Shown: positions 8,691 through 61,946 of the stretch, piece by piece
How positions within the stretch are numbered: position 1 is the stretch's first letter
How the letters are laid out: each line of letters opens with the position of its first letter
The notes under the pieces: model-generated
Told to the model about the DNA's origin: nothing
Seen by the model: only the letters and a program-made list of their open reading frames with translations
Database searches by the model: none
Assembly: GCA_021648725.1 (NCBI GenBank)
Contig: JAKISF010000002.1
Span: forward strand, 32,002 to 96,001
Origin: Bacteroidales bacterium
GTDB taxonomy: Bacteria; Bacteroidota; Bacteroidia; Bacteroidales; JAADGE01
Reading direction: 5' to 3'
DNA length: 64,000 bases
Translations under genes and position numbers: made by a program

Positions 8691-8749
8691 CCGGATTTAT
8701 AACAAAACATTAAAAAATAAAATTTCCTTTTTATTTTAAAAAAAAAGTA

Positions 8750-42018: not shown

Positions 42019-42042
42019 TAATAACATTTTTTAAAAAGTTTA

Positions 42043-42050
42043 TATCTTTG
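42043..42050 (+). promoter_or_regulatory. TAnnTTTG -7 box very close to the start codon
   Basis: TATCTTTG ends 7 nt before the ATG at 42058, implying a leaderless or near-leaderless mRNA. Confidence 0.35.
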
Positions 42051-42057
42051 TTAAGCA

Positions 42058-42627: not shown

Positions 42628-42687
42628 TCCCCCGAAAATATATAAATCATATTCTTAATTGTATGAAAGATTTTGTTGTTGCAGGCA

Positions 42688-42695
42688 TAACTTTG
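42688..42695 (+). promoter_or_regulatory. TAnnTTTG -7 box for copA
   Basis: TAACTTTG lies 22 nt upstream of the ATG at 42718. It sits between the two arms of an 11-bp inverted repeat (see findings). Confidence 0.4.
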
Positions 42696-42717
42696 CAGTA
42701 AATAAAATCATACAATT

Positions 42718-45216
42718 ATGACACATACATATAAAATTGACGGCATGACCTGCATGGGTTGTAAAACTAGTGTTGAAGATGCTCTGAATTCTCTTAACGA
42801 AATTACCGATTTAAAAGTAAACTTAAAGAAGTCGGAAGTTACAATTGAAATGTCGAAACACATCTCGCTTGAAAAATTGCAGGAAACCCTGATGAAAGCT
42901 GGCTTACATTATACAATTCAGATGCCCGGTAACGAGCCCGTAAACAAACACGAACATAAACACCATATTAAGAAAGCAGATTTTAATAAAACCGGTATTT
43001 TTTACTGCCCGATGCAATGCGAAGGTGATAAAACTTATGATAAATTCGGAGCATGTCCAAAATGCGGAATGGATTTGATAGAGCAAAAACAAGTAAGTAC
43101 GAAAACAGAATATACTTGTCCTATGCACCCGGAAGTTATTAAAGATGTTCCCGGTGCTTGTCCTAAATGCGGAATGGATTTAGTTCCGAAAGAACCCGAA
43201 GAAAGTGAAGAGGACAAAACCTATTTGAAACTTCTTAAAAAAATGAAGATAGCTGTAATTTTTACTGTCCCTATCTTTCTTATTGCAATGGCGGATATTC
43301 TGCCTAATAATCCTTTGTCTGATATTACAAATCAGCAAAATTGGAATATATTGCAATTAATATTATCCTTGCCTGTTGTTTTTTATGCAACTCGAATGTT
43401 CTTTGAAAGAGCCTGGACATCAATCGTTACTTGGAACTTAAATATGTTCACGCTTATAGGCATCGGTGCGGGTGTTGCTTTTATATTCAGCATATTTGCA
43501 CTGTTTTTTCCGGATATTTTCCCTGCTCAATTTAAAACCGACAGCGGAACAGTATATGTTTATTTCGAGGCAGTTACCGTAATTCTTACATTGGTTCTTC
43601 TCGGGCAGCTTTTGGAAGCAAAAGCACACAGTAAAACAAGCGGAGCAATAAAAGAACTTATGAAGTTAGCTCCGACAGAAGCAACCGTAATTATTGACGG
43701 TGTTGAAAAAGTAATTTCAATTCACGATATAAAAAAAGGTGATTTAATTCGGGTTAAACCCGGTGAGAAAATTCCCGTTGACGGAATTATTACAGAAGGC
43801 GGCAGCCATATTGACGAAAGTATGATTACCGGTGAACCTGTTCCCGTAGATAAAACAATTAACGATAATGTCAGTTCCGGAACAATTAACGGTAATAAGT
43901 CTTTTGTAATGAAAGCCGAAAAAGTAGGTTCCGAAACTTTATTGTCGCAAATAATAAAATTGGTTAACGAAGCAAGTCGCTCGCGTGCACCTATCCAAAA
44001 ACTTGCCGATAAAATTTCAAAATACTTTGTACCTATCGTAGTGGTCATTGCCGGAACTACATTTGCCGTATGGGCAATTTTCGGTCCCGAGCCGGCTTAC
44101 GTTTATGCTTTTGTGAATGCAGTTGCCGTTCTTATTATTGCTTGCCCTTGTGCATTGGGGCTTGCAACGCCTATGGCGGTTATGGTAGGTGTGGGCAAAG
44201 GTGCTCAATCCGGAATTTTAATAAAAAATGCCGAAGCCATTGAAAAAATGGACAAAATCAATGTTTTGATTACCGATAAAACAGGAACACTTACCGAAGG
44301 TAAACCCTCTGTCGAGAAAATTGTTGCTCTAAATGCCGGTAAAGAAGAATATTTATTACAAAAAGCAGCATCTTTAAATTCACAAAGTGAACATCCGCTT
44401 GCCGAGGCAGTTGTGAAATATGCAAAAAATAAAAAAATTGCTTTAAATGAAGCTGAAAATTTTGAATCCGTTACCGGAAAAGGTGTTATCGGAGTTGTTG
44501 CAGGAGAAAATATTGCGATAGGAAATTCAAAATTAATGTCCGAAATCGGTGCGGATATACCCGAAAACTTAAAAAATCAAGTTGAAAAAGAACAAAAACT
44601 TGGTAAAACGGTTTCATATATTGCAGAAAATAAAAATGTTGCCGGTTTTATTACCATAAGCGATGCAATTAAGAAAACAAGCAAAGAAGCTGTTCAAGAA
44701 CTTATCCGACAAGGTGTTGAAGTAATTATGCTTACAGGCGACAATAAAAATACTGCAAAAGCAGTTGCCGATGAACTTAACATCTCCGGCTTTAAAGCCG
44801 AATGTATGCCCGAAGATAAACTCAATGAAATAAAACGATTGCAAGCCGAAGGTAAAATTGTTGCAATGGCGGGCGACGGAATAAATGATGCTCCGGCTCT
44901 GGCACAATCCGATATCGGTATTGCTATGGGAACCGGCACGGATGTCGCAATTGAAAGCGGCGAAATCACATTAATGAAAGGCGATTTAAACGGTATTGTT
45001 AAAGCCAAAAAGTTAAGTCATTCTATAATGAAAAACATCAAACAAAACTTATTTTTTGCATTTATTTATAATGTATTAGGTGTCCCGATTGCCGCAGGTG
45101 TATTATTCCCGGTATTCGGACTTTTATTGTCACCTATGATTGCAGCAGCAGCCATGAGCTTCAGTTCTGTTTCGGTAATTACAAATTCTTTACGATTAAA
45201 AAATCTGAAATTGTAA
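42718..45216 (+). CDS. copA: copper(I)/silver-translocating P1B-type ATPase
   Basis: N-terminal HMA (GMTCMGC). Two C-P-x-C-G-M-D-L zinc-ribbon-like metal-binding modules follow (YCPMQCEGD...CPKCGMDL; CPMHPEV...CPKCGMDL). The TM CPC motif (ACPCALGLATP), DKTGTLT, MLTGD and GDGINDAP are all present. Confidence 0.96.
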   Translation: MTHTYKIDGMTCMGCKTSVEDALNSLNEITDLKVNLKKSEVTIEMSKHISLEKLQETLMKAGLHYTIQMPGNEPVNKHEHKHHIKKADFNKTGIFYCPMQCEGDKTYDKFGACPKCGMDLIEQKQVSTKTEYTCPMHPEVIKDVPGACPKCGMDLVPKEPEESEEDKTYLKLLKKMKIAVIFTVPIFLIAMADILPNNPLSDITNQQNWNILQLILSLPVVFYATRMFFERAWTSIVTWNLNMFTLIGIGAGVAFIFSIFALFFPDIFPAQFKTDSGTVYVYFEAVTVILTLVLLGQLLEAKAHSKTSGAIKELMKLAPTEATVIIDGVEKVISIHDIKKGDLIRVKPGEKIPVDGIITEGGSHIDESMITGEPVPVDKTINDNVSSGTINGNKSFVMKAEKVGSETLLSQIIKLVNEASRSRAPIQKLADKISKYFVPIVVVIAGTTFAVWAIFGPEPAYVYAFVNAVAVLIIACPCALGLATPMAVMVGVGKGAQSGILIKNAEAIEKMDKINVLITDKTGTLTEGKPSVEKIVALNAGKEEYLLQKAASLNSQSEHPLAEAVVKYAKNKKIALNEAENFESVTGKGVIGVVAGENIAIGNSKLMSEIGADIPENLKNQVEKEQKLGKTVSYIAENKNVAGFITISDAIKKTSKEAVQELIRQGVEVIMLTGDNKNTAKAVADELNISGFKAECMPEDKLNEIKRLQAEGKIVAMAGDGINDAPALAQSDIGIAMGTGTDVAIESGEITLMKGDLNGIVKAKKLSHSIMKNIKQNLFFAFIYNVLGVPIAAGVLFPVFGLLLSPMIAAAAMSFSSVSVITNSLRLKNLKL

Positions 45217-45255
45217 TAAAAACATTATTTTCGTGCCTAAATACAAAGTAAAATA

Positions 45256-45891
45256 ATGAAAGAAATTGCAAAAAATAAAGATTTAAGGCATCATTGGAAT
45301 AAAAAATACACAAAAACTCCCGATGAACAGCTTGGTTGGTATGAAACAGATTTGAGTAAAACAATTGAATTAATAGAAAAAACAAACTTAAATAAAGATT
45401 CAAATATATTAATTATCGGAGCGGGAACAACAACCCTTATTGATGAATTACTTAAAAAAAATTATACGAATATAACGGCAACCGATATCAGTGAAGTTGC
45501 ATTACAAAAACTAAAAGACCGAATAAATACGGATAAAGTTAAATTTATAATTGACGATTTAACAAAACCGAAAGAAATTAACAAAATACAAAAAGTTGAT
45601 TTATGGATAGACAGAGCTGTTTTGCATTTCTTTACCGAAAAAAAAGACAGGGAAACATATTTTAATCTGTTAAAAAGAAATATTAAAAGTAACGGATTTG
45701 CCTTGATTGCTCAATTTAACACAGATGGTGCCGAAACCTGTTCGGGACTTCCGGTTTTCAGGTACAATAAAGAAATGCTTGTTATAGAACTCGGTAAGGA
45801 GTTTGATTTAACTGAAAGTTTTAATCATACATATATAATGCCTTCCGGTAACGAAAGACCGTATATTTATACTTTATTTAAAAAGAAATAG
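45256..45891 (+). CDS. class I SAM-dependent methyltransferase
   Basis: Motif I ILIIGAGTTTLIDELL, an acidic residue after beta-2 (ITATDIS), and motif-II-like DLWIDRAVLHF. Confidence 0.75.
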   Translation: MKEIAKNKDLRHHWNKKYTKTPDEQLGWYETDLSKTIELIEKTNLNKDSNILIIGAGTTTLIDELLKKNYTNITATDISEVALQKLKDRINTDKVKFIIDDLTKPKEINKIQKVDLWIDRAVLHFFTEKKDRETYFNLLKRNIKSNGFALIAQFNTDGAETCSGLPVFRYNKEMLVIELGKEFDLTESFNHTYIMPSGNERPYIYTLFKKK

Positions 45892-45985
45892 CCTTAAAAT
45901 TATATAAAATACTTTCAAAATTATATGAAAGAAACAAAAAATAACATTTTAATTTTACACCGAATAATACCTTAAGTTATATGCT

Positions 45986-46183
45986 ATGCTTAAAAAAGCA
46001 GCTTATTATATAATGACTTTTATTTTGTTACTCTCTGTAATAGGAATAACCGTGAATAAACATTATTCGGGAAATAAATTATTTTCAGTATCTCTTTTTC
46101 TTGAAGCTGACAGTTGCTGTGATAATCCTTGTGATTGTTGCAGTAACACATCAGAAACACACAGCCTGACAGACAGTTTTGTC
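45986..46183 (+). repeat. direct repeat copy A (5' ~198 nt of the small Cys-rich gene)
   Basis: Aligns without gaps to 51337-51534 with about 14 mismatches by hand count (~93% identity). Similarity collapses after ...GACAGACAGTTTTGT. Confidence 0.8.
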
Positions 46184-46345
46184 AGAACGTTTTTTGAATT
46201 CGGTATAAATTCCTTCAGCTACATTACTAATACAAATGAAATAATTTCGAGTTTGTCTGAAAACACTGTTTTTTCGGCAACATATAAAAATATCAAATAT
46301 AGCGCAAACACTTCTCCTGCATATTTGCAGAGTTTCAGGTTGTAG
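45986..46345 (+). CDS. small Cys-rich single-pass membrane protein, paralog 1 of 3
   Basis: 119 aa. TM helix (AAYYIMTFILLLSVIGITV), then KHYSGNKLFS, then the Cys cluster SCCDNPCDCC. The C-terminus is LQSFRL. Paralogs are at 51337 and 55136. Confidence 0.7.
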   Translation: MLKKAAYYIMTFILLLSVIGITVNKHYSGNKLFSVSLFLEADSCCDNPCDCCSNTSETHSLTDSFVRTFFEFGINSFSYITNTNEIISSLSENTVFSATYKNIKYSANTSPAYLQSFRL

Positions 46346-46606
46346 AGTAATCAGATACCTGAATAGTCTGTTTTTTTTTATAAATAAACCTAATAGAATA
46401 GATTATACTTCCGGAATTTAACCTCCGATACAGCAAAACGATTATTGTAAATACACTTTGTGTCGACAAATAACTTATCTAATCGTACCTGATATAAAAA
46501 AACTCGCATAACAATAAAATACATTTTCATACAAATATATTTTATACAATAATAAAACATATCTTCATCCGAATATACTTTATATAACAGTTTAAACAAA
46601 AATAAT

Positions 46607-47083
46607 ATGAAACAAAAAAAAACAATTACATACATTGCGTTTTTGCTCTTAGGAATAGGAGGATTACACGCACAAGAAAGCCCGGTTGCCGCAGGCGGTA
46701 AGGCAACAGGAGCTGGCGGAACAGTCAGTTACTCCGTAGGACAAGTAGTTTATACTGCTCACACGGGCACAACAGGAAGCATTTCACAAGGTGTTCAACA
46801 ACCTTACGAAATTTATACAACAGTAGGAATAAACGAAATATCTGTCAATTTGGAACTTTCCGTTTATCCCAATCCTACCGACGGTTATTTAACTTTAAAA
46901 TCAGAAGACAGCAGCAATTTGAGTTATCAATTATTTAACATACAAGGAAAAATAATTGAAGACAAAATAATAAGCAGCACTTCTACAGACATTAGTTTGG
47001 AAAGCCAAGCATCAGCCGCTTACTTTTTAAACGTATTAAAAAATAACCAAGTAATAAAAACATTTAAAATAATCAAAAACTAA
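46607..47083 (+). CDS. small secreted T9SS cargo protein (type A sorting domain)
   Basis: Signal peptide ending LHAQ, then a Gly-rich AAGGKATGAGGTVSYSVGQVVYT module. The T9SS CTD reads LSVYPNPTDGYLTLK ... AAYFLNVLKNNQVIKTFKIIKN. Confidence 0.8.
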   Translation: MKQKKTITYIAFLLLGIGGLHAQESPVAAGGKATGAGGTVSYSVGQVVYTAHTGTTGSISQGVQQPYEIYTTVGINEISVNLELSVYPNPTDGYLTLKSEDSSNLSYQLFNIQGKIIEDKIISSTSTDISLESQASAAYFLNVLKNNQVIKTFKIIKN

Positions 47084-47087
47084 AATT

Positions 47088-48320
47088 ATGAAACGAATAT
47101 TAAAAATAGCAAGTGCTTTACTTTTAACTTTTAGCTTTGGGCTTTCCGTTGTTTACGCCCAAGCTCCGGAAAAAATGAGTTACCAAGCGGTAATAAGAGA
47201 TGCCGGTAACAACTTAATAGCCAATCAAACCGTAGAAATGCAAATAAGCATTTTACAAGGCTCTGCAACAGGCACGGAAGTTTATGTAGAAACACAAAGC
47301 CCTACAACCAATGCTAACGGATTGGTAAGCATTGAAATAGGAACGGGAACCGTGGTAAGTGGCAATTTTACCGCCATAGACTGGGCAAACGACACTTATT
47401 TTATAAAAACAGAAACCGACCCGACAGGCGGAACAAATTACACAATTACGGGAACAAGCCAGTTGTTAAGTGTACCTTATGCTTTGCATGCTAAAACAGC
47501 CGAAAGTTTAACGGGAACAGTAAATTATACCGAAACCGACCCGGTTTTCGGAGCATCTATTGCCAATGGTATTACAGCAGCAGATACCGCCAATTGGAAC
47601 AACCACACCGTTGATACCGATACACATATTGATTCAACAGGAATAGCAGGTTTAGGGTATGTTGCAGGAGCACACACTGTTGACACCGATACACACATAG
47701 ATTCTGCCGGTATTGCAGGTTTAGGATATGTAGCAGGAGCACACGTTGATTCTACTGCTATAGCCAATATGGGATTTGTAGCAGGTGGTGGTAGTGGTGG
47801 ATACTCTGTTGGCGATTTTGCACAAGGTGGTATAGTATTTTGGGTTGACGAAACAGGAAAACACGGATTGGTTTGTGCAAAATCTGACCAAAACGGAGAA
47901 AGTAGTGTAAGATGGTATGCAGGAACTTATGGTAATACTCAAGCAAAAGGAGACGGGCCTTATGCGGGAAAGGCAAATACAGCAATAATAATTGCCGCAC
48001 AAGTAGCAATTGGAGATGACGGAAATACCTATGCAGCTCGAATATGTAATGAATTACAAATTACCGAAGGCGGAAAAACTTATGGCGATTGGTATTTACC
48101 TTCAATAGCAGAACTTACTCTAATGTATCAAAATAGAGCAACTATTAATGCAACAGCTACAACAAATGGTGGTGCTAATTTTGTTAATAATATGCTCTAT
48201 TGGAGTTCTACAGATATCAATAATAATAACGCTTGGGGCTTCAATTTCTACTATGGTACCCCAGACAATATCGGCTTTAAGGACAACCCTTATAGAGTGA
48301 GAGCCGTCAGAGCTTTTTAA
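47088..48320 (+). CDS. secreted fibre-like protein with a C-terminal DUF1566 (Lcl C-terminal / lectin-like) domain
   Basis: Signal peptide (VVYAQA) and an N-terminal block shared with the next gene. 23-aa HTVDTDTHIDSxGIAGLGYVAGA repeats are present. The C-terminus GGIVFWVDETG.HGLV...WYLPSIAELTLMY...YWSST...AWGFNF..G......K.N.YRVRAVRAF matches the DUF1566 pattern. Confidence 0.75.
   Translation: MKRILKIASALLLTFSFGLSVVYAQAPEKMSYQAVIRDAGNNLIANQTVEMQISILQGSATGTEVYVETQSPTTNANGLVSIEIGTGTVVSGNFTAIDWANDTYFIKTETDPTGGTNYTITGTSQLLSVPYALHAKTAESLTGTVNYTETDPVFGASIANGITAADTANWNNHTVDTDTHIDSTGIAGLGYVAGAHTVDTDTHIDSAGIAGLGYVAGAHVDSTAIANMGFVAGGGSGGYSVGDFAQGGIVFWVDETGKHGLVCAKSDQNGESSVRWYAGTYGNTQAKGDGPYAGKANTAIIIAAQVAIGDDGNTYAARICNELQITEGGKTYGDWYLPSIAELTLMYQNRATINATATTNGGANFVNNMLYWSSTDINNNNAWGFNFYYGTPDNIGFKDNPYRVRAVRAF
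47160..47741 (+). repeat. shared N-terminal block, copy A (collinear with 48586-49167)
   Basis: There is a constant offset of 1426 nt to the copy in the next gene, with no indels over 582 nt. The last ~150 nt are almost identical. Confidence 0.8.
47604..47789 (+). repeat. in-frame 69-bp tandem repeat, ~2.7 copies
   Basis: Units at 47604-47672 and 47673-47741 both encode HTVDTDTHIDS(T/A)GIAGLGYVAGA. A degenerate partial unit encoding HVDSTAIANMGFVAGG runs to 47789. Confidence 0.85.
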
Positions 48321-48360
48321 CCTGGTGAAATAATTTTAAAAATGGATTTTTGCTAAGCAA

Positions 48361-48387
48361 CCTGTCAGGTTTTAAAAATCTGACAGG
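48361..48387 (+). terminator. hairpin between the two fibre-like genes
   Basis: CCTGTCAG (48361-48368) pairs with CTGACAGG (48380-48387) around an 11-nt loop. Only a weak T-run follows. Confidence 0.4.
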
Positions 48388-48513
48388 TTTACAAATAAAA
48401 CCCACAATGTGGGTAAAATAATTAAAAACGATATGAGACTGTCCGTTAAAATGAATTTTCTTTTTCAGAAAGTTTGTATCAAGGACACAATCATAACTTA
48501 AAAATTAAAAACA

Positions 48514-50991
48514 ATGAAAAAGATAATTCAATATACAGCAATGGTACTTTTTATTTGTACCGTTTCACTTTCAACTGCTTTTGCACAAGCACCCGAAAAA
48601 ATGAGTTACCAAGCCGTAATTCGCGATGCAAGTAATAATTTAGTAATTTCTCAATCCGTAGGAATGCAAATAAGCATTTTACAAAGCTCTGAAACAGGCA
48701 CGGAAGTTTATGTTGAAACACAAAACCCTACAACCAATACCAACGGATTGGTAAGTATTGAAATAGGAACGGGAACTGTGGTAAGCGGCGATTTCACTAC
48801 AATAGATTGGGCAAACGACACCTATTTTGTAAAAACAGAAACCGACCCGACAGGCGGAACAAACTATACCATAACGGGAACAAGCCAACTATTAAGTGTA
48901 CCTTACGCTTTGCACGCTAAAACAGCCGAAAACATTACAGGAACTGTAAGTTATACCGAAACTGACCCAATATTTGGAGCATCTATTGCCAATGGTATAA
49001 CAGCGGCAGACACAGCCAATTGGAACAACCACACCATTGATACCGATACACATATTGATTCAGCAGGAATAGCAGGTTTAGGGTATGTTGCAGGAGCACA
49101 CACTGTTGACACCGATACACACATAGATTCTGCCGGTATCGCAGTTTTTGGTTATGTAGCAGGAGGAATAACCGCAGAAGCAGACGGAGACCCAACCAAC
49201 GAAATACAAACCATATCAAAACCGGGCCCATCTCCGGTTGTTTATTTGTCTAATGGCGGAGGGAGTTTTGTTGATGCAGTAAACGATGCTGATGCTGACC
49301 CTCTGAACGAACTGCAAACAATATCCAGAATCTTAGATATCGTGACCTTATCCAATACAGGCGGTTCTTTTTCGGTAAACGATGTCGATGCTGACCCATT
49401 AAATGAACTTCAAGATATTTCGTTAAGCGGTAACAGTCTGAGCATTAGCAGCGGCTCTACGCTTGATTTATCCGGTATCGGTTTTGATGGTGATTTCAAT
49501 AATTTAACCAATGTACCCGTTAATTTAGACACAAATTTTACCGATGATTTTGACGGACAATACAGCAGTTTAACCGGCGTACCAACCAATGTAAGTGTGT
49601 TTACGAACGATGCAGGTTATTTGACATCTTTCTCAGAAACCGATCCGGCTTTTACAGCTGCGCCGGCATTTGGTATTACTAATACCTTAATGACCAATTG
49701 GAGCACCGCTTATTCTTGGGGAAACCATGCTGCACAAGGTTATTTAACTTCTTTTATTGAGGTAGATGGAGACTCTACCAATGAAATACAAAACTTATCA
49801 ATTAGTGGTAATAATTTAAGTATTTCCGGTACGGGGGGAAATACGGTTGCTTTACCAACAAGTTCTTCTCCTTGGACAATTAGCGGAAGTGATATTTACA
49901 GAGCAAGTGGTAACGTAGGAATAGGAACAACTACACCAAGCACAGTTGTAGAGGTTGCAGATAATTTTCCTCTTTTTTCATTAACGGATAATGATAATTT
50001 AGAAACAGATGGGAATTATCAATCTTATTTCCAAGGATTAGATATGGCAGGAACAGAAACATGGTATGTTGGTGAAGGATCTACAGGTAAATTAGTTGGT
50101 TTGATGGCTTCTCGCCCTAATTATGATTTGTTTTTAGGTACTAATTCTATTGAACAGATGACCATCAAAGCTGATGGGAAAACAGGAATAGGAACAACAA
50201 CACCATTAACTACTTTAGATGTTGACGGAGACATTAGAGGAACATCTTTTAAATTAGGTAACACAACTACTATCGGTAATTATTTTCATGTAGGTTTTAA
50301 TGCCAACGGTACAGATACCGATATAAAATACGGTTCAGGTTTAATAGCCTTTATACCGGGAGGAAGCAGTAATATTCCTTTAGCATTAAACAATACGGGA
50401 GATGCTTTAATGGCGTTAGGAAGCAGTAATGTGGGTATTGGCACTTTCTCTCCAACCGAAAAGTTAGAGGTAAGTGGTTCTGTTAAAATTACAGATGGAA
50501 CAGAAGGTGCAGGAAAAGTATTAACTTCTGATGCCAATGGTAAAGCAAGTTGGGTAACTCCGACAACTACCGGGGGTACAGGCGGTCTGGTTTCGCAAGG
50601 AGGTGAAGTTCGAAGAGATTTTATTACATTTAATACTACTGATAATACAGCTAATCCAATACATATCAAAACAAACATACCTGAATATTCAAACACCATG
50701 TACCGTATATTGGTTGAAGGTTATGCTTATGGAGTAAGTGCGGTAATTAATTCAGATGTAGCTGGTTATACATTTGGATCAACTGCAGGTATAAGTAATC
50801 CAAGTGCTAATAATTATGCTTCGGGGGTCTCAATATCTCAATACATCAGTTCTGATGGTTTTGTCGTTGTTAAATTAACTACAACATATAATTATTACTT
50901 AGGTTTTTCTGCCTCAGCTTGGTTTGTTAATCCTACAGGTACTAATTTCCCAATTAGTGCTACGGCAGTTGTTAGTGCAACTAATTTATAA
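48514..50991 (+). CDS. secreted long tail-fibre-like / adhesin-like protein
   Basis: Signal peptide (TAFAQA) and the same N-terminal block and 23-aa repeats as the previous gene. D-x-D-P-(L/T)-N-E-(L/I)-Q spacer motifs recur (x4). Repeated GIGTTTP....(L/V)(D/E)V motifs are of the kind seen in phage tail-fibre-like proteins. The C-terminal ~200 aa domain is distinct and unrecognised. Confidence 0.7.
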   Translation: MKKIIQYTAMVLFICTVSLSTAFAQAPEKMSYQAVIRDASNNLVISQSVGMQISILQSSETGTEVYVETQNPTTNTNGLVSIEIGTGTVVSGDFTTIDWANDTYFVKTETDPTGGTNYTITGTSQLLSVPYALHAKTAENITGTVSYTETDPIFGASIANGITAADTANWNNHTIDTDTHIDSAGIAGLGYVAGAHTVDTDTHIDSAGIAVFGYVAGGITAEADGDPTNEIQTISKPGPSPVVYLSNGGGSFVDAVNDADADPLNELQTISRILDIVTLSNTGGSFSVNDVDADPLNELQDISLSGNSLSISSGSTLDLSGIGFDGDFNNLTNVPVNLDTNFTDDFDGQYSSLTGVPTNVSVFTNDAGYLTSFSETDPAFTAAPAFGITNTLMTNWSTAYSWGNHAAQGYLTSFIEVDGDSTNEIQNLSISGNNLSISGTGGNTVALPTSSSPWTISGSDIYRASGNVGIGTTTPSTVVEVADNFPLFSLTDNDNLETDGNYQSYFQGLDMAGTETWYVGEGSTGKLVGLMASRPNYDLFLGTNSIEQMTIKADGKTGIGTTTPLTTLDVDGDIRGTSFKLGNTTTIGNYFHVGFNANGTDTDIKYGSGLIAFIPGGSSNIPLALNNTGDALMALGSSNVGIGTFSPTEKLEVSGSVKITDGTEGAGKVLTSDANGKASWVTPTTTGGTGGLVSQGGEVRRDFITFNTTDNTANPIHIKTNIPEYSNTMYRILVEGYAYGVSAVINSDVAGYTFGSTAGISNPSANNYASGVSISQYISSDGFVVVKLTTTYNYYLGFSASAWFVNPTGTNFPISATAVVSATNL
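48586..49167 (+). repeat. shared N-terminal block, copy B (collinear with 47160-47741)
   Basis: See copy A. This copy includes two 69-bp units at 49030-49098 and 49099-49167. Confidence 0.8.
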
Positions 50992-51040
50992 TAAAAATGT
51001 CTTTAAGCATCTATTTTGGAGCTTATAAAAAATAAAAATA

Positions 51041-51125
51041 ATGAAAAAAATAATAACAACAGTATTTACCATTCTTTTAGGATAAGGCCGGGAACTTGTA
51101 CGTTCGCGCAGTTCGGGCTTTTTAA
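51041..51125 (+). pseudogene. remnant of a third DUF1566-type gene (signal-peptide start joined to the last codons)
   Basis: ATG at 51041 encodes MKKIITTVFTILLG, then a stop at 51083-51085. A different frame then reads ...KAGNLYVRAVRAF* (stop 51123-51125). This is the same YRVRAVRAF* ending as the 47088 gene but with different codons. Confidence 0.5.
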
Positions 51126-51165
51126 CTATTTATCACTTTAACAATTAGCGTGGTAGTAGATTTTA

Positions 51166-51202
51166 TTTTTTTGAGTTGAGTAAATTGCTCAACTCAAAAA
51201 AA
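51166..51202. terminator. bidirectional-looking rho-independent terminator
   Basis: TTTTTTTGAGTTGAG (51166-51180), loop TAAATTG, then CTCAACTCAAAAAAA (51188-51202). The stem is perfect, with T- and A-runs on either side. Confidence 0.6.
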
Positions 51203-51294
51203 CTTTACAAATATGGCATTATCACATCCTTTACTATTTTAAAATAATATAAATATTAATCAAAATTATATGATAATAACACAATATTAAACAT

Positions 51295-51302
51295 TACTTT
51301 TG
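51295..51302 (+). promoter_or_regulatory. TAnnTTTG -7 box
   Basis: TACTTTTG lies 34 nt upstream of the ATG at 51337. Confidence 0.35.
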
Positions 51303-51336
51303 TGTTTACAGTTTAAATATTTATTCTAACATAAAA

Positions 51337-51534
51337 ATGCTTAAAAAAGCAGCCTATTATATAATGTCTTTTATCCTGTTACTCTCTGTAATAGGAATAA
51401 CCGTGAATAAACATTATTCGGGAAATAAATTATTTTCTGTATCTCTTTTTCTTGAAGCTGACAGTTGCTGTGACATTCCGTGCGATTGCTGCACCGACAC
51501 ATCAGAAACACACAGCCTGACAGACAGTTTTGTT
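51337..51534 (+). repeat. direct repeat copy B
   Basis: ~93% identical to 45986-46183. Confidence 0.8.
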
Positions 51535-51708
51535 AAATCAGATTTCATCTCTGATCAAAAAACTGTAGTTAAAACGGTTTCATTTTATGTCAATACCTTT
51601 AAGAGTTATTTTTTAACAGAAACAAAACATATTCTCTCGGACAACTTTAAATCCTTAAAGCAAATTGTCCTGAATTCCTCAGCCTTTCTTCAGTCTTTCA
51701 GACTATAG
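51337..51708 (+). CDS. small Cys-rich single-pass membrane protein, paralog 2 of 3
   Basis: 123 aa. The first ~66 aa are nearly identical to the 45986 product (SCCDIPCDCC cluster). The middle is divergent, and the C-terminus is the same (FLQSFRL). Confidence 0.7.
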   Translation: MLKKAAYYIMSFILLLSVIGITVNKHYSGNKLFSVSLFLEADSCCDIPCDCCTDTSETHSLTDSFVKSDFISDQKTVVKTVSFYVNTFKSYFLTETKHILSDNFKSLKQIVLNSSAFLQSFRL

Positions 51709-51839
51709 GATAAATCTGCATATACGGTAAACTTTACTTTTAGAGAAGTTATACCTTATCCGGGTTTATAGTAATATAACAAATAAAATAACTGCAAATT
51801 TCGGTTTATCCGAAATATAATAAAATTAATAATAAACAA

Positions 51840-52358
51840 ATGAAAACTTTTAAAATATTATCAATTACGGCAATTATTGCAATGTCTGTTGCAATAGTTT
51901 CATGTGATAAAAATAATCAAATTAAAGATTTGACAATTGATATAGTCGGGTCATATACAGGAACGGTTACAAGCAACAATAAAGCAGGAGTGTCTGATGC
52001 AACAGCAGATATTACAAGAACTGATGACAACCAAATAGAAATTCATTGTTACGGAAGTGAAATTGATACAACATTTATTCAACGTCTTTTTGAAGACGGA
52101 GATATGATACAAATGTGTACCGTGGGTAATGATTTTTATAATGAATACGGACACGACATGACAGATCAAAGCGAGCATCACAATATGATGAAAGATTCCG
52201 AAGGAATGTCTTGGGCACACCACATGGATGAAGAACATGAAAACGGTGATGAACATTACGGATTATATAATAGTAATTCAAATGTATTTACCTATACATT
52301 CAAAATTATGTCCGGAAACACATCATATACAGCCGAGTTTTTCGGTGAAAGGAATTAA
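51840..52358 (+). CDS. His/Met-rich periplasmic lipoprotein (probable metal-binding)
   Basis: Lipoprotein signal (AIVSCDKN). An acidic His/Met-rich stretch follows: HDMTDQSEHHNMMKDSEGMSWAHHMDEEHENGDEHY. Confidence 0.65.
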   Translation: MKTFKILSITAIIAMSVAIVSCDKNNQIKDLTIDIVGSYTGTVTSNNKAGVSDATADITRTDDNQIEIHCYGSEIDTTFIQRLFEDGDMIQMCTVGNDFYNEYGHDMTDQSEHHNMMKDSEGMSWAHHMDEEHENGDEHYGLYNSNSNVFTYTFKIMSGNTSYTAEFFGERN

Positions 52359-52365
52359 CAGAAAA

Positions 52366-52399
52366 CTGCATACAGGCGAAAAACATTGCCTGTATGCAG
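52366..52399 (+). terminator. hairpin after the His-rich lipoprotein gene
   Basis: CTGCATACAGGC (52366-52377) pairs with GCCTGTATGCAG (52388-52399), a perfect 12-bp stem with a 10-nt loop. Confidence 0.55.
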
Positions 52400-52438
52400 T
52401 ACAATTTTAAATAAATATAATAATTAAAATCTTTTAAA

Positions 52439-52864
52439 ATGAAAAAATCAGTATATATATTAGCCCTTTTGGTCTTCTCTGTTGCCGCAACAGCAATGAT
52501 GACACCAAAAAAAATGTTTAACTTTAACATCGGTCAAACTGATGAGTGGGTTGCTCCAAAAAGTGCCGATAATAATAAAAACCCATTTTCAGGAAATGAA
52601 GAAGCAGCCAAATTCGGAAAAAAACTTTACAAGCAAAACTGTGCAATTTGCCACGGAAACAAAGGTATGGGCGATGGGCTTGCAGGTATGAGTCTGAAGC
52701 CGAAACCGACAAACCTTACAACAGAAAATTTTAATAAACAATCAGACGGTGCAATTTTCTGGAAATTAACAGAGGGAAATTCTCCGATGCCTTCGTATAA
52801 AAAAACATTCACGGAAAAACAGCGTTGGCAGGTCGTAACTTATTTAAGAGAAATTAAGAAATAG
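52439..52864 (+). CDS. monohaem class I c-type cytochrome (periplasmic)
   Basis: Signal peptide; a single CAICH motif in the context LYKQNCAICHGNKGMGDG; a distal Met candidate (SPMPSY). Confidence 0.85.
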   Translation: MKKSVYILALLVFSVAATAMMTPKKMFNFNIGQTDEWVAPKSADNNKNPFSGNEEAAKFGKKLYKQNCAICHGNKGMGDGLAGMSLKPKPTNLTTENFNKQSDGAIFWKLTEGNSPMPSYKKTFTEKQRWQVVTYLREIKK

Positions 52865-52969
52865 CTTATAGGTTTTTTGTAATGAAATTAAGCGTACAAG
52901 GAATTTTATTACAAATTTCACAGATATCTAAATCTGTGATAACCTTTTAAGAATTTAAAAAATATACAA

Positions 52970-54172
52970 ATGAAAAACATACTGTTTGTCGTAATATTAA
53001 TTCTTTTTTCTGTATCTGGCATTTTTTCTCAAAATTACGATAATCAAAAATTTGAGAAAATGAGAAATGAAATTGACAGCCTGAAAGAATTAAGTAAACC
53101 CGGAAAAAGCAATTTTTTATTGAGAGGGTATTCTCATTCCGGTCTTGAAATAACAAAGGATAATACGTCTTTTGTTGGTGGGTCGTTTAACCCGATTTTT
53201 ATTTATAAACAATCTGACAGATTATTGTTTGAAAGTGAACTGGAGTTTGAACTTGAAGATAGAAATTTAGCTATAGGTCTGGAATATGCAAATATTTCCT
53301 ATCTGCTTACCAAGTCTTTAACTCTTCGATTCGGTAAAGTTCTTACACCTTTCGGAATTTTTGTTGACAGAATGCATCCGGCATGGATTGATAAGTTTTC
53401 TTCAAATCCGCTCGGCATAGGTCACGGAGGAATACTTCCGAGCTCCGATATAGGAATTGAATTGAGAGGTGCATCATATTTAGGGTCTTCAAAAGTTAAT
53501 TATTCAATTTATGTTATGAACGGACCTCGCCTGAATGAAGGCGATGAGGAGCCGGAAGAAGCCGGACAATTGCATTTTGATAACTTTCCCGATAACAACA
53601 GAGGTAAAACAGTCGGCGGAAGATTGGGATTTTTGCCCTTATCAAACTCTTCGTTAGAAGTCGGTTTTTCCGGAATGTACGGAAAAGTAGGATCCAAAGA
53701 TTCAGAATATTTAAATGTCGCTTCCGCTTTATATGCAATAGACCTTTCTTACATACAAAACTTACCGTTTATGCAAAGCGTACTCGATATAAAAGGTCAA
53801 TACAGCGGTATAGTTACGGATGACGCAAACTACACAGATACCGAAAATCTTTTAGACCCTACGGCTCTATATACTTTTGATAACCGTAGTTCAACATTTT
53901 TTGCACAATTGGCATTAAGACCTGCAATGGTAAACAACAAAATTCTGAGAAATTTTGAAGTAGCAGGAAGATATTCTGATATTGCTACACCTGTCGGTTC
54001 ATTATGGGAAACAAATCTTAATCAATGGGAGTTCAGCTTAAATTATTGGTTAAACTGGCGAACTGTTTTTAAACTCTCATACCGAACAACACAAGAAGAT
54101 GCCGAACAGGGTGAAAGTGCCGAAAGTCTTACCGGTAATGCGTTACTGTTTCATTGGGCAATCGGGTTTTAA
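52970..54172 (+). CDS. outer-membrane porin (OprO/P-like or uncharacterised beta-barrel)
   Basis: Signal peptide, a short coiled segment, then alternating beta-strand pattern throughout. The terminal residues are ...LLFHWAIGF with a C-terminal Phe. Confidence 0.65.
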   Translation: MKNILFVVILILFSVSGIFSQNYDNQKFEKMRNEIDSLKELSKPGKSNFLLRGYSHSGLEITKDNTSFVGGSFNPIFIYKQSDRLLFESELEFELEDRNLAIGLEYANISYLLTKSLTLRFGKVLTPFGIFVDRMHPAWIDKFSSNPLGIGHGGILPSSDIGIELRGASYLGSSKVNYSIYVMNGPRLNEGDEEPEEAGQLHFDNFPDNNRGKTVGGRLGFLPLSNSSLEVGFSGMYGKVGSKDSEYLNVASALYAIDLSYIQNLPFMQSVLDIKGQYSGIVTDDANYTDTENLLDPTALYTFDNRSSTFFAQLALRPAMVNNKILRNFEVAGRYSDIATPVGSLWETNLNQWEFSLNYWLNWRTVFKLSYRTTQEDAEQGESAESLTGNALLFHWAIGF

Positions 54173-54212
54173 TTATTTTCTAAAAACGTTTTAACTATTT
54201 AATCAATTTAAT

Positions 54213-54494
54213 ATGAAAAAGATAAAAAAAACAATACTGTTTAACGGCTTCGGATTATTTATTCTTATTTTTCTGATTTCCTTATTAAGTAATTGTGCCG
54301 TAAATGATGATGTGAAAGCTAAAAGCGGAGCACAACTATGGGGAGAAAGTTGTTTGAGATGCCACAATAATCCGTCACCGGAAACATTCGGAGATGTTGA
54401 TTGGGATGTTGCCGTTATGCATATGCGAATACGTGCAAATTTAACGGATGAAGAAGCCAAAAAAATTGCAAAGTTCCTGAAAACTGCAAATTAA
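54213..54494 (+). CDS. small lipoprotein with a single CxxCH (putative monohaem cytochrome)
   Basis: Lipobox (LLSNC). A single CLRCH motif occurs in QLWGESCLRCHNNPSP, with a downstream Met/His pair (VMHM). Confidence 0.6.
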   Translation: MKKIKKTILFNGFGLFILIFLISLLSNCAVNDDVKAKSGAQLWGESCLRCHNNPSPETFGDVDWDVAVMHMRIRANLTDEEAKKIAKFLKTAN

Positions 54495-54597
54495 ATTGCA
54501 ATGTTTCAAAATTTTATAAATATTATTCAGAATTTTATAAACAAATATGACAGAAAAATGTTTTATTTGTATTAATTATTAACTAACAATCAAAAAA

Positions 54598-55008
54598 ATG
54601 AAAAAAGTAATCTTTTTAGTATCAGCAATACTCTTTACAATCAGTTTTTCTGTTGTTTCGGCACAAAGTGGCGGATGTTGCAACAAATCATATTCAAAAT
54701 CATCTTGCAATAAAAATAAAAGCAAAGAAAGTTTCAACTCAACAAAAGGTGAGAAAGAAACAACCTTTAAAGTTGCAGGTAATTGTGGTATGTGTGAGGC
54801 AAGAATTGAAAAAGCAGCTCTCAATGTAAAAGATGTTAAATCCGCAGAATGGAATAAAGAAACCAAAATGCTGAAAATAACTTACACCGGAAATGTTAAT
54901 AAAGAAGAAGTGCAAAAATCAATTGCTGCGGCAGGTCATGATACCGGCAAGTTTAAGGCAAAAGATGCAGTTTATAATGCACTCCCCGGATGTTGCAAAT
55001 ACAGATAA
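54598..55008 (+). CDS. secreted heavy-metal-associated (HMA) domain protein with an N-terminal Cys cluster
   Basis: Signal peptide; GGCCNKSYSKSSC; HMA-like fold with FKVAGNCGMCEARIEKA; C-terminal PGCCKYR. Confidence 0.8.
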   Translation: MKKVIFLVSAILFTISFSVVSAQSGGCCNKSYSKSSCNKNKSKESFNSTKGEKETTFKVAGNCGMCEARIEKAALNVKDVKSAEWNKETKMLKITYTGNVNKEEVQKSIAAAGHDTGKFKAKDAVYNALPGCCKYR

Positions 55009-55030
55009 TCTGTTTCTTCAACAAACAATT

Positions 55031-55066
55031 AAAGGCTTGTAAATTATAACTTTACAAGCCTTTTTT
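55031..55066 (+). terminator. rho-independent terminator
   Basis: AAAGGCTTGTAAA (55031-55043) pairs with TTTACAAGCCTTT (55051-55063), running into a T-run. Confidence 0.7.
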
Positions 55067-55122
55067 GCAAAATAATGCACATTTTAAACTGAATTATGTG
55101 AAAACATCATCAAAAAACACAG

Positions 55123-55130
55123 TATATTTG
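55123..55130 (+). promoter_or_regulatory. TAnnTTTG -7 box very close to the start codon
   Basis: TATATTTG ends 5 nt before the ATG at 55136, implying a leaderless or near-leaderless mRNA. Confidence 0.35.
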
Positions 55131-55135
55131 TATCA

Positions 55136-55597
55136 ATGTTAAAAGCAATATCACATATCATAATTTCAATTTTAGTTCTGTTTCTGTCAATAGGAATAAC
55201 CGTCAGTAAACATTACTCAAACGGAAAACTGTATTCTCAATCAGTTTTTGGAGAAGCCGAAAGTTGCGAATCTGCCGAATCTGAAGTTTGCGAAATGCAA
55301 AATACGGCAATGCAATGTGAAATGCACAACGAACAAAATGAAAATAATAACACAGAACAATCCTGTTCTTGTGAAGACACATCGGAATATCTATATTTTG
55401 ATGCAATTTATACAGTTGCTGAAAAATTAACATTAAATCCTATTTATAAAAACTCAACTGTATTTTTTACAAGCAATATTATTGAAATATCCTCAATTGA
55501 GACCAACCGAAACACGCAATTTCAATTTTCAAACAGAAAAATGCCCGGTTTGAAAACACAAGACTTTGCTTCCTTATTCCAAATATTTCGTTGTTGA
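55136..55597 (+). CDS. small Cys/Glu-rich single-pass membrane protein, paralog 3 of 3 (divergent)
   Basis: 153 aa. It has the same architecture as the other two: a TM helix ending SIGITVSKHYSNGKLYSQSVFGEAESC, scattered Cys (VCEM, QCEM, SCSCED), and the C-terminus LFQIFRC. Confidence 0.65.
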   Translation: MLKAISHIIISILVLFLSIGITVSKHYSNGKLYSQSVFGEAESCESAESEVCEMQNTAMQCEMHNEQNENNNTEQSCSCEDTSEYLYFDAIYTVAEKLTLNPIYKNSTVFFTSNIIEISSIETNRNTQFQFSNRKMPGLKTQDFASLFQIFRC

Positions 55598-55756
55598 TTT
55601 TAGAATCAAACTAAAAGTTATCGTATTTTATTAAAAGTTCATTTTTATTAATGCTTTCAAATTAATATACGGTTTAATACGCAAGTTTTATTTAAGTATA
55701 TTTTAACTTAAATATTGCTCAACAAAAAACTTTTATACATTCTAAAATACAAAACA

Positions 55757-56281
55757 ATGAAAAATATAATAATAATTGCCGCAGCAGTTTTAATCAGTGT
55801 AACATCATATGCACAAATAAAACTCAGCAGCAAATTAAATTCAAATACAAAAGTTGTCAAAATAGATGAGAATAACTATAAATCTTACAATTTTAACTCA
55901 AAAGACAACACCGTTCAGATTTTCAACTTAGACAATACACTTTGGAAAACAGTAACTCTTAATATACCCGAAGATGCTTTTTTCGATGAAATTTTACACA
56001 TCTCAAACAGTATAATTAATAAAGACGAACAAGTTGAGATTGTTTATACAACCTACAAAGAAACATATTCCGATGTTTTCGATGAGGTAGAAAGCATTGC
56101 CTATGAAAATTACAACCTTATAATTATTAATGAAAAAGGTGAAGAACTCCTAAATGTAAAAGGAGGTATCTCTTTTAATATCTTAAACAAAAGTGATGCT
56201 TCCGATATCATTATTATCAATACACTTATAAAAAATGAATTCGATAATATTAAAAAAACACTTGTTTATTCAATATTCTGA
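55757..56281 (+). CDS. hypothetical secreted protein
   Basis: Start set at the ATG giving a clean signal peptide (MKNIIIIAAAVLISVTSYAQ); the track ORF starts at TTG 55715. No recognisable motifs. Confidence 0.6.
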   Translation: MKNIIIIAAAVLISVTSYAQIKLSSKLNSNTKVVKIDENNYKSYNFNSKDNTVQIFNLDNTLWKTVTLNIPEDAFFDEILHISNSIINKDEQVEIVYTTYKETYSDVFDEVESIAYENYNLIIINEKGEELLNVKGGISFNILNKSDASDIIIINTLIKNEFDNIKKTLVYSIF

Positions 56282-56330
56282 TAAATAATTGTAACTTTAA
56301 AAAAATATTAACATATAAAACTCTTTTAAA

Positions 56331-56714
56331 ATGGAATATTACAACAATAAATTTGTCGATACCGACATAGAAACAGCAACAGAACTAATAAAAACAGAAC
56401 TTCAAAAAGAAGGTTTCGGCATTGTTACCCAATTTGATGTCAACAAAGCATTAAAAGAAAAAATGGATTTGGATTTTCGACCATACAGAATTTTGGGAGC
56501 TTGTAATCCGCCGTTTGCATTAAAATCTATTAATGCCGAAGATAAAATAGGAACCTTATTGCCTTGCAATGTTATGTTACAGGAAGAAAACGGTAAAACC
56601 GAAATCGCTATTATTAATCCTGTTGCAATGATACAGTCAATTGAAAACAAAGAAATGAAAGAAATTGCAAAAGAAATTGCCGAAAAGTTAAATTCAGCAT
56701 TAAAAAATGTCTGA
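56331..56714 (+). CDS. DUF302 domain protein
   Basis: 127 aa. The GFGIVTQFDV...L........YRILGACNP..A pattern matches DUF302. Confidence 0.8.
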   Translation: MEYYNNKFVDTDIETATELIKTELQKEGFGIVTQFDVNKALKEKMDLDFRPYRILGACNPPFALKSINAEDKIGTLLPCNVMLQEENGKTEIAIINPVAMIQSIENKEMKEIAKEIAEKLNSALKNV

Positions 56715-56750
56715 TTATAATCTAATGTCTTAAATCTAAATTATAAAAAA

Positions 56751-60557: not shown

Positions 60558-60644
60558 AAGGCCTTGAAGCGTTTTAGAGTTTTGAATAAAAAAACGCTTT
60601 AGGTTTTCAAAAGCACCGGAAAGGTTTGTCAAAAATAAAAAAAG

Positions 60645-61868: not shown

Positions 61869-61946
61869 AACTGTACGATGATTCCGATATTTAATCAGTA
61901 CAAATCACAAAACCTCAGTGTACAATAAAAAACAAAATATAACATT

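Follow-up and report, generated by a model that had tools for sequence, protein, structure and literature searches.

A stretch of 64,000 nucleotides from contig JAKISF010000002.1 of a Bacteroidales bacterium (called here the window) carries a metal-resistance island in which three small paralogous genes stand out, namely p1, p2 and p3, the open reading frames (ORFs) at 45986, 51337 and 55136. They encode Cys-rich proteins with a single N-terminal hydrophobic segment and, as do their relatives in other genomes, they represent the promoter-proximal cistrons of metal-resistance units. The three genes are as follows.

45986-46345, + strand: p1, HYC_CC_PP/DUF8199 protein of 119 aa, with HYS and CCxxxCxCC motifs, no PP and a TAG stop; NF047658 45.1 bits
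51337-51708, + strand: p2, HYC_CC_PP/DUF8199 protein of 123 aa, with HYS and CCxxxCxCC motifs, no PP and a TAG stop; NF047658 42.0 bits
55136-55597, + strand: p3, HYC_CC_PP protein of 153 aa, with HYS, a scattered C/E/M/H segment, CSC, no PP and a TGA stop; NF047658 34.4 bits

An initial annotation of the window had reported these ORFs and their common design. All of the motifs that it quoted are found in the + strand translations, including the shared N-terminal motif (S/V)IGITV.KHYS..KL(F/Y)S.S.F.EA.SC, the Cys segments SCCDNPCDCC, SCCDIPCDCC and VCEM-QCEM-SCSCED, and the C-termini LQSFRL and LFQIFRC. A six-frame motif search revealed no fourth copy in the 64-kb window. The p1 and p2 proteins share 94% identity over their first 66 residues (184 of 198 nt in the genes) and 45% thereafter, and p3 is about 30% identical to both.

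Membership of the HYC_CC_PP family

The initial annotation had likened the proteins to a Bacteroidota family named for HYC, CC and PP motifs, noting at the same time that the window proteins have HYS for HYC and lack PP. The family is the right one, and the two departures are ordinary variants of the family. With the curated cut-off of NCBIfam NF047658 (HYC_CC_PP), 28 bits, as the criterion of membership, p1, p2 and p3 score 45.1, 42.0 and 34.4 bits, respectively; since none of them has PP, their membership rests on this hidden Markov model (HMM) cut-off. The closest homologues carry the precomputed Pfam assignment PF26622 (DUF8199), and p1-p3 had no Pfam match at E<=1 with a model set that does not include PF26622. 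By these profile scores p1-p3 are genuine HYC_CC_PP/DUF8199 proteins of PP-less subgroups, and thus new members of an already catalogued family.

The family is very large, with 1261 clusters at E<=1e-3 in a profile search of 1.84 billion cluster representatives, and is defined as one of Bacteroidota proteins of about 110-160 aa, a range that includes the 119-153 aa of the window proteins. In view of its conservation, the idea that p1-p3 are artefacts of ORF calling was rejected. In the public record p1 is identical to L3J35_01275 and p3 to L3J35_01320, both from one Bacteroidales bacterium metagenome-assembled genome (MAG), and the exact p2 sequence, unlike those of p1 and p3 from the same MAG, was absent from the protein search results. 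The locus tags from L3J35_01275 to L3J35_01320 are one fewer than the ORFs in the window, so that one small gene, possibly p2 or that of a 93-aa cytochrome, may be unannotated there.

Conserved residues, export signal and predicted fold

In diverse alignments of the family, little or no variation is seen at G20, H26, C44, C45 and C52 (p2 numbering); the cysteines emphasized in the initial annotation are thus kept across homologues. G20 and H26-Y27 occur in p1, p2 and p3, with Ser instead of Cys at residue 28. Ser is common at this position in relatives: among 225 anchored members the residue following H-Y/F is Cys in 119 and Ser in 98 (HYS about 44%), and the best 150 representatives include 78 HYS and 51 HYC proteins. 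HYS is therefore a regular variant and no bar to membership. The CC motifs of p1 and p2, the first of which follows E-A-x-S, correspond to C44-C45 and C51-C52. The p3 protein has C44 alone, followed by C77-S-C79 aligned to the second CC, and has no vicinal Cys. The PP motif is present in 170 of 235 relatives (72%) and missing in the other 65 (28%).

Family proteins are built from an N-terminal Sec-type hydrophobic segment, an H-Y-(C/S) strand, a Cys-rich loop, a spacer variable in sequence and conserved in length, and a conserved tail. The hydrophobic run spans about 15 residues, with a flanking charge of +2.7 on its N side against +1.4/-0.85 on its C side, and the C-terminal part of the proteins is acidic (mean net charge -5). 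By the positive-inside rule, this charge bias favours an N-in/C-out orientation. The run closes with S/T/A, T/S, x, G at about residue 20 and, according to the -3/-1 rule of signal peptidase I, the presumed transmembrane helix may be a cleaved signal peptide. The single N-terminal hydrophobic helix of the initial annotation is thus present, but its role as a membrane anchor is uncertain, a cleavable signal peptide being equally possible from the S/T-S/T-x-G end.

AlphaFold2 models show an N-terminal helix (residues 2-19 or 2-23) followed by a three-stranded sheet, in which two strands flank HY(C/S) and the third comes after the second CC, with the Cys-rich loop between strands 2 and 3. The predicted local distance difference test (pLDDT) score is 60.7 for p2, with its C-terminal half below 50, and 72 for a canonical member; the helix and the sheet are strongly conserved, with block-mean pLDDT of about 75-94 over that part. 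A Foldseek search of the PDB gave no significant match to solved structures (best E 2.1).

Neighbourhood of family genes in other genomes

The genomic context was surveyed in 23 genome loci plus seven contexts of more distant members (numbered loci of this sample are designated L001, L002 and so on), which together hold 33 family genes in 29 loci outside the window. The genome loci were collected with an 18-sequence alignment and are biased to the KHYS branch, a bias partly offset by the seven distant HYC contexts. Bacteroidota lineages account for 20 of the 23 loci by label; two others carry a Chlorobi/Chlorobiota title, and the last is called only "uncultured bacterium".

A readable downstream gene was available for 31 of the 33 genes and, in all 31, it belongs to a same-strand metal module, so the enrichment beside metal-handling genes, the absence of which the initial annotation had named as a refutation, is borne out. 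The module starts directly with CusA in 18 cases and with DUF302 followed by CusA in five; two family genes precede a run encoding a His-rich lipoprotein, cytochrome c and a porin, three a TonB-dependent receptor plus an HMA protein, and three a 258-aa protein with HMA and NHL proteins. When the window genes are counted as well, the downstream gene is readable for 34 family genes, and p1 alone departs from this pattern.

Several details of these loci may be of use for annotation. In L026 (8534-10838), L027 (5118-7416) and L030 (8513-10813), canonical genes of the MHYCQGQLKS type head a conserved trio, whose products are an exported protein of 258-260 aa that belongs to no Pfam family, a roughly 205-aa HMA protein and a roughly 268-aa NHL/TolB-like protein; the trio of L027 adjoins MbnP, two CCP_MauG peroxidases, DUF305 and a multicopper oxidase. 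The TonB receptors encoded after family genes (L005 7192-9450, L019 4146-6362 and L024 10394-12592) have in common the plug-region sequence A/PCCNLSESFE, with a vicinal Cys pair. In L028 (1249-4286), L025 (2641-4185) and L031 (1-7702), a family gene and cusA lie near Rep3/ParA plasmid genes, ArdC/RadC or type I restriction-modification genes, neighbours which suggest that metal units with family genes are often located on mobile elements.

A shared operator and a candidate AraC-type regulator

Upstream of p1, p2 and p3 there is a direct repeat, AAAATWAT-N14-RAATTATRTGAWA, in a 21-nt register and with a half-site of about AAAATTATAT. To avoid circularity, a 38-nt position weight matrix (PWM) was trained on nine sites from other loci only and the window was then scanned with it. 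Exactly five sites of 24-31 bits were obtained, all on the + strand, in front of copA, p1, p2, an HMA gene and p3. The next best match in the window had 9.9 bits, and the null maximum per 64 kb was 13.2 +/- 2.7 bits (largest, 19.8). The sites are the following.

42632-42669, + strand: operator-like repeat 5' of copA, AAAATATAT...N...AATTGTATGAAAG; 31.4 bits, the best in the window
45894-45931, + strand: operator-like repeat 5' of p1; 28.9 bits, also a pattern match
51239-51276, + strand: operator-like repeat 5' of p2; 23.9 bits
54506-54543, + strand: operator-like site 5' of the HMA lipoprotein gene; 23.9 bits
55067-55104, + strand: operator-like repeat 5' of p3; 28.4 bits

In the related loci (396 kb), PWM matches of at least 18 bits lie 32-62 nt upstream of copA, family or HMA genes, with a single exception of 18.2 bits in L008; part of these sites were outside the training set. 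Orthologous sites precede the HMA genes of L001 (21.8 bits) and L002 (30.3 bits). A different motif, CCTGTTAAAC ... TGTTAAAC, replaces the AAAATTATAT repeat upstream of family genes in L004 (about 690-740), L005 (about 6640-6690 and 9900-9950) and L010 (about 8680-8720), suggesting a second regulator specificity with the same gene arrangement.

The TAnnTTTG box that the initial annotation had seen before two of the three genes is confirmed for p2 (51295-51302, TACTTTTG) and p3 (55123-55130, TATATTTG); p1 has only TAATTTTA upstream, and no full box. The -7 boxes of p2 and p3 are located downstream of their operators. The p3 box ends 5 nt before the ATG, a geometry shared by all p3-type orthologues (boxes at about 13870 in L001, 8180 in L002, 9985 in L013, 775 in L016 and 2125 in L017), so p3-type mRNAs would be leaderless or nearly so. 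A sigma-70 promoter scan was uninformative (51 sites found, 51.2 expected).

The whole region from 40666 to 63689 is encoded on the + strand, and the statement that each small gene heads a run therefore rests on promoters and not on strand changes. It holds in that all three genes have an operator 5' of them, but the second run is split, because the HMA gene at 54598 has an operator of its own.

The regulator that might bind these sites is encoded next to copA. The N-terminal 70 aa of the AraC-family protein of the island resemble the HMA domain of CopA (BLASTP E=6e-5, 30% identity, CxxC in register), and Pfam HMA had no match to this N-terminus; the HMA-like label comes from the pairwise BLASTP comparison, so the AraC protein is a putative operator binder. 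AraC homologues also adjoin family genes in L004, L007, L010-L013, L015 and L025. The AraC-HMA protein is thus a likely candidate for a cytoplasmic Cu/Ag sensor acting at the shared operator, through which transcription of the island units would answer to cytoplasmic Cu(I)/Ag(I). Nothing relevant on an AraC-HMA copper regulator in Bacteroidetes/Bacteroidota was found in the searched literature.

C-terminal ruler, tail, stop codon and RNA stem

CutF and CruR are proteobacterial proteins whose nascent chains sense copper (see the last section), and predictions drawn from their biology were tested on the HYC_CC_PP family. The loci are related and the p-values given below are thus optimistic, though the effects are large and mutually consistent.

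In 170 diverse members, the distance from the second CC to the C-terminus has a median of 72 residues (interquartile range 71-73, range 67-77), in a region that is the least conserved in sequence, and the spacing from HY to CC varies from 23 to 63. The corresponding distances in p1, p2 and p3 are 67, 71 and 74 residues. Among the 170 members bearing PP, the motif is found 14-15 residues from the end (at -16/-15) in 147. The extreme tail is also conserved, with Q at -5 in 180 of 235 proteins and F/Y at -3 in 222 of 235, followed by L/R (-2) and L/C/I (-1), and the tail peptide is maintained despite synonymous codon changes. p1, p2 and p3 all conserve it in their last seven residues (Q-x-F-[RL]-[LC]).

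Stop codons of family genes are depleted in TAA: the counts of TAA, TAG and TGA are 10, 13 and 13 (n=36), compared with 144, 33 and 30 (n=207) for other genes of the same loci (Fisher p=3e-6). p1, p2 and p3 have thus kept the CC-to-end ruler as well as the Q-x-F tail, and none of the three genes ends in TAA.

RNA structure is also more pronounced in the spacers that follow family genes (median z -3.0) than in the other same-strand spacers (median z -1.7). In minimum-energy folds, the 22 nt that begin at the stop codon form on average 8.7 pairs with the 30 nt immediately upstream of the next start; the corresponding averages are 3.0 for dinucleotide shuffles and 1.8 for 67 same-strand control spacers. 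At least six such pairs occur in 61% of family spacers and in 15% of controls (Mann-Whitney p=1.4e-8). The sequences of the stem arms vary between loci. Stem and PP tend to occur together (both in 16 cases, PP only in 3, stem only in 3, neither in 9; Fisher p=0.0016). The window has one spacer of this kind.

55595-55751, + strand: structured spacer of p3, in which a stem pairs 55595-55606, including the UGA stop, with 55739-55751, 5 nt before the ATG at 55757

This spacer folds with -26.7 kcal/mol (z=-4.0; none of 200 shuffles was as stable) and has 17 end-to-end pairs, compared with 1.5 in shuffles.

Gene order of the island and the position of p1

The remaining features of the island, whose identities in the initial annotation agree with the Pfam and NCBIfam matches, are listed below.

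42058-42627, + strand: AraC-family regulator, in which residues 99-177 match Pfam HTH_18/HTH_AraC and an HMA-like domain with MVCPRC lies at the N-terminus
42718-45216, + strand: CopA-type P1B ATPase with an HMA and two HMBD domains (Pfam E1-E2_ATPase, Hydrolase, HMBD, HMA)
46607-50991, + strand: fibre cassette, encoding a protein with a type IX secretion system tail, an Lcl_C protein and an 825-aa protein (Pfam Por_Secre_tail, Lcl_C)
51840-54494, + strand: His-rich lipoprotein-like protein, cytochrome c, 400-aa porin-like protein and small cytochrome c (Pfam Cytochrome_CBB3/Cytochrom_C)
54598-55008, + strand: exported HMA-domain protein (lipoprotein; Pfam HMA), with CxxC and CC pairs at both ends
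55031-55063: terminator-like 13-bp hairpin followed by a T run (+ strand), which parts the HMA gene from the p3 unit
55757-63689, + strand: Cu/Ag efflux unit, encoding a 188-aa exported protein, DUF302, CusA, a TolC-like outer membrane efflux protein and CusB with HMBD and DUF3347 (Pfam; TIGR00914 CusA/CzcA)

A methyltransferase gene lies between copA and p1. The porin-like label of the 400-aa protein comes from weak BBP2/Porin_O_P hints alone. In its sequence the pump of the window is of the Cu/Ag type, the closest solved structure being E. coli CusA (634 bits) versus ZneA (370 bits). None of the genes annotated in the island encodes a CusF homologue. Neither CueR nor CusRS was seen there, nor a membrane sensor kinase or anti-sigma partner, and the only regulator is of the soluble AraC type. 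An Rfam scan of 41900-57000 identified no known riboswitch; its sole match, a sub-threshold trpB motif at 54998-55071 (30.7 bits vs a gathering threshold of 59, E 0.67), overlaps the terminator-like hairpin and is probably due to chance. The 188-aa exported protein (55715-56281) is missing from five p3-type loci, where the p3-type gene is directly 5' of DUF302.

In the fibre cassette, the proteins encoded at 47088-48320 and 48514-50991 are almost the same over roughly 210 N-terminal residues, which include the repeat unit VDTDTHIDS(A/T)GIAGLGYVAGAH, and no Pfam match was obtained for the 825-aa protein. The PWM scan showed no operator in front of the cassette.

The initial annotation had proposed that p1 is dedicated to this cassette. 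The closest syntenic loci, L001 and L002, have the order AraC, CopA, small ORF, family gene, His-lipoprotein run, HMA, p3-type gene, DUF302 and CusA; they contain no fibre cassette and only two family genes. The C-terminal half of p1 is 54-61% identical to the L001 and L002 genes that precede the His-rich lipoprotein run, and that of p2 resembles another subgroup. From this synteny and the orthology of the C-terminal half, p1 is the orthologue of the gene before the His-rich lipoprotein run in relatives, and control of the fibre cassette by p1 is rejected. Probably, and most simply, insertion of the cassette and p2 separated p1 from the partner that it once preceded, and p1 and p2 later became homogenised in their 5' halves. 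In L001 (6981-9484) and L002 (1419 to about 4000), the closest syntenic MAGs, copA is in two ORFs, which reflects either a frameshift/pseudogene or an assembly error; the window gene is intact.

Interpretation and alternative explanations

Cis-acting, co-translational metal sensing is the best single explanation for the family; for p1-p3 it is proposed with confidence somewhat short of even. We infer by analogy that the family is a Bacteroidota functional counterpart of the CutF/CruR/CopL/CzcI class, acting in cis. The nascent chain would go to the Sec translocon and, once translation has run to the last codons, the Cys cluster some 72 residues earlier in the chain would just have arrived at the periplasmic side. 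Metal bound to this cluster would alter the time the ribosome dwells on the conserved tail and the weak (TAG/TGA) stop, and this dwell would in turn govern the unfolding of the stem that joins the stop-codon region to the start region of the following cistron. This cistron, be it of a pump, a receptor or an HMA module, would then be translated only with metal outside the cytoplasm. A more elaborate version, in which these are independently evolved, Bacteroidota-specific co-translational periplasmic sensors within a two-compartment gate (cytoplasmic metal acting on transcription and periplasmic metal on translation), is offered more tentatively still.

Of the roles named in the initial annotation (sensor, chaperone or leader protein), a leader or sensor in cis is thus favoured by the ruler, the tail, the stop codons and the stem, and a chaperone is its serious rival. 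As an alternative, the proteins might act in trans, chaperoning or buffering Cu(I)/Ag(I) through their thiolates, either in the periplasm or from an anchor in the inner membrane; they would be co-induced with each module and pass metal to CusCBA or to the HMA, cytochrome and porin proteins, filling the role of CusF. In that case, which is possible though on the unlikely side, the structured spacer would merely stabilise the upstream mRNA, keeping the small protein in excess over the pump. The conserved multi-Cys cluster with its His/Met/acidic variants, the N-in/C-out topology suggested by charge with an acidic C-terminal part, and the conserved, confidently modelled helix and beta-sheet core all suit such a function, as does the finding that no gene annotated in the island encodes a CusF homologue; the exported HMA protein, with its CxxC and CC pairs, points to periplasmic thiolate chemistry already in use, and p1-p3 lack PP, two of them also lacking the stem. 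However, a chaperone leaves unexplained the fixed 71-73-residue distance from CC to stop across a poorly conserved region, as well as the conserved extreme tail, the TAA depletion, the stem and its link with PP. A protein dedicated to CusCBA would not be expected before TonB receptors and HMA-only modules, and Pfam and Foldseek gave no match to CusF or to a known metallochaperone fold.

Two further schemes can be considered. A CzcI-type accessory, the mature exported protein of which would tune signalling or the pump by protein contact, is improbable: CzcI too heads a resistance-nodulation-division (RND) operon without a Pro motif (PMC9973294), the window proteins are PP-less, and paralogues with different Cys-rich inserts front different modules, but the island has no membrane sensor kinase or anti-sigma partner, the mechanism of CzcI is itself not established, and the ruler, tail and stop-codon signals are left unexplained. 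Very improbable is a thiol relay similar to MerT/MerF, in which vicinal Cys pairs by a membrane helix move soft metals across or along the inner membrane. Invariant CC pairs do lie near the hydrophobic helix, and there is a weak NCBIfam MerTP_fusion hint, for the neighbouring HMA protein only; yet the family has one hydrophobic segment, possibly cleaved, its Cys lie outside the helix, neither a mer gene nor a resemblance to MerT, MerF or MerC was found, and p3 has no vicinal Cys.

Several points weigh against co-translational sensing. No PP is found in p1-p3, the 262-nt spacer of p1 is weakly structured without a closing stem, and that of p2 forms two local hairpins, also without a closing stem (z=-2.3). 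The p3-type orthologues of L001, L002, L013, L016 and L017 have no stop-to-start stem, so that p3 of the window is the only p3-type locus with a strong closing stem. Spacers in the window measure 132-262 nt, a length that weakens direct coupling between ribosome and stem. Since transcription is already under operator control, a second layer of control is not required, and the strongly conserved, confidently predicted helix and sheet core is more easily reconciled with a lasting mature protein that has a function of its own than with a sensor that is soon degraded. The relatedness of the loci, which makes the p-values optimistic, has also to be counted here. No match to DUF2946, the domain of CutF and CruR, was found with Pfam at E<=1 for p1-p3 or at E<=10 in 81 relatives, and the relation to CutF/CruR is therefore one of "works like" and not of "is a". 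Lastly, the remark in the initial annotation that no function is established for such proteins holds for the family, as no paper on HYC_CC_PP or DUF8199 and no experiment on the family were found, whereas experiments have been published on the analogous class of Proteobacteria. Even if co-translational sensing is general in the family, p1 and p2, being devoid of PP and stem, may act more weakly or differently, perhaps as CzcI does.

Significance

The control of Cu/Ag resistance in Bacteroidota is poorly understood, and no characterised regulator was found in the searched literature. The island offers a testable five-site regulon for an AraC protein with an HMA-like domain. It also draws attention to a very large family (more than 1200 clusters at 50% identity) placed always between a putative metal-responsive promoter and resistance genes. 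Family genes would also be useful as annotation markers of metal-resistance units on mobile elements of Bacteroidota.

If co-translational sensing is correct, the sensing of extracytoplasmic metal by nascent chains would reach a second major Gram-negative phylum, with other motifs and another RNA design. Shine-Dalgarno sequences are not normally used in Bacteroidota, and the family would then provide a natural system for translational coupling without them. The value lies in the testable mechanism proposed for the whole family and in the AraC-HMA operator rather than in p1-p3 themselves. The kind of system to which they come closest is already known from Proteobacteria.

Comparison with known systems

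CusF, the small periplasmic protein encoded within the E. coli cusCFBA operon, represents the role that the family would have as a chaperone. CusF is an OB-fold protein with a Met2His/Trp site, its gene lying between cusC and cusB. p1-p3 had no match to the CusF domain (Pfam PF11604).

Two further proteins are covered in PMC9973294. CzcI of Cupriavidus metallidurans (czcNICBA) is a small exported protein encoded directly 5' of a heavy-metal RND efflux operon and, like p1-p3, lacks the C-terminal Pro motif; it differs in belonging to a Zn/Co/Cd system under two-component control, and has no sequence relation to p1-p3. CopL of Xanthomonas (copLAB) is a Cys/His-rich small ORF needed in cis upstream for Cu-induced expression. 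It is, in contrast, proteobacterial, located upstream of a multicopper oxidase, and of another sequence family.

CutF and CruR (DUF2946) are small exported proteins with a Cys motif, encoded by the first cistron of copper operons, whose nascent chain senses copper and acts on the next gene by way of a C-terminal, Pro-containing arrest-like motif (PMC9973294, PMC9426467). CruR (Bp2923) of Bordetella pertussis is a DUF2946 upstream ORF (uORF) that works through Rho-dependent termination (Roy et al. 2022, PMC9426467). The spacing between its Cys motif and arrest motif is conserved to 1-2 residues, and its spacer has 162 nt (PMC9426467). This spacing parallels the 71-73-residue ruler from CC to stop in the family, the long spacer is a further likeness, and CruR heads an operon with a TonB-dependent transporter, as do the family genes of three loci. 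On the other hand, CruR comes from a GC-rich genome, acts independently of its signal peptide and carries its RAPP arrest motif 3 residues short of the C-terminus; what Cu represses in that case is an uptake system, whereas the genes downstream of family members are mostly for efflux and resistance. Cu-related uORFs with RAPP/RGPP have been reported as absent from Bacteroidota (PMC12992588), which fits a different arrest design in that phylum.

CutF of Rhodobacter capsulatus (cutFOG) unfolds a stem-loop over the initiation site of the next gene (Ozturk et al. 2023, PMC9973294). The family differs from CutF in having HY(C/S) and CC...CC instead of CxxxC, in the canonical PP followed by 14-15 residues ending Q-S-F-L-L (p1-p3 being without PP), and in a stem that joins the stop-codon region to the next start over 60-160 nt. 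There are also likenesses: both are small proteins (under some 150 aa) with a Cys metal motif, the Sec signal at the N-terminus of CutF has a probable counterpart in the hydrophobic segment of the family, CutF and the canonical family share a conserved Pro-containing tail, and both are first cistrons before a copper-homeostasis gene. The spacer stem-loop of CutF occludes the next initiation region, as the stem of family spacers, present in the window only after p3, may do. Of 5334 "CutF-like" proteins collected with jackhmmer, 19% were from Bacteroidota, with ACR_tran, OEP and TonB neighbours (PMC9973294), and HYC_CC_PP proteins are probably already among these Bacteroidota entries.

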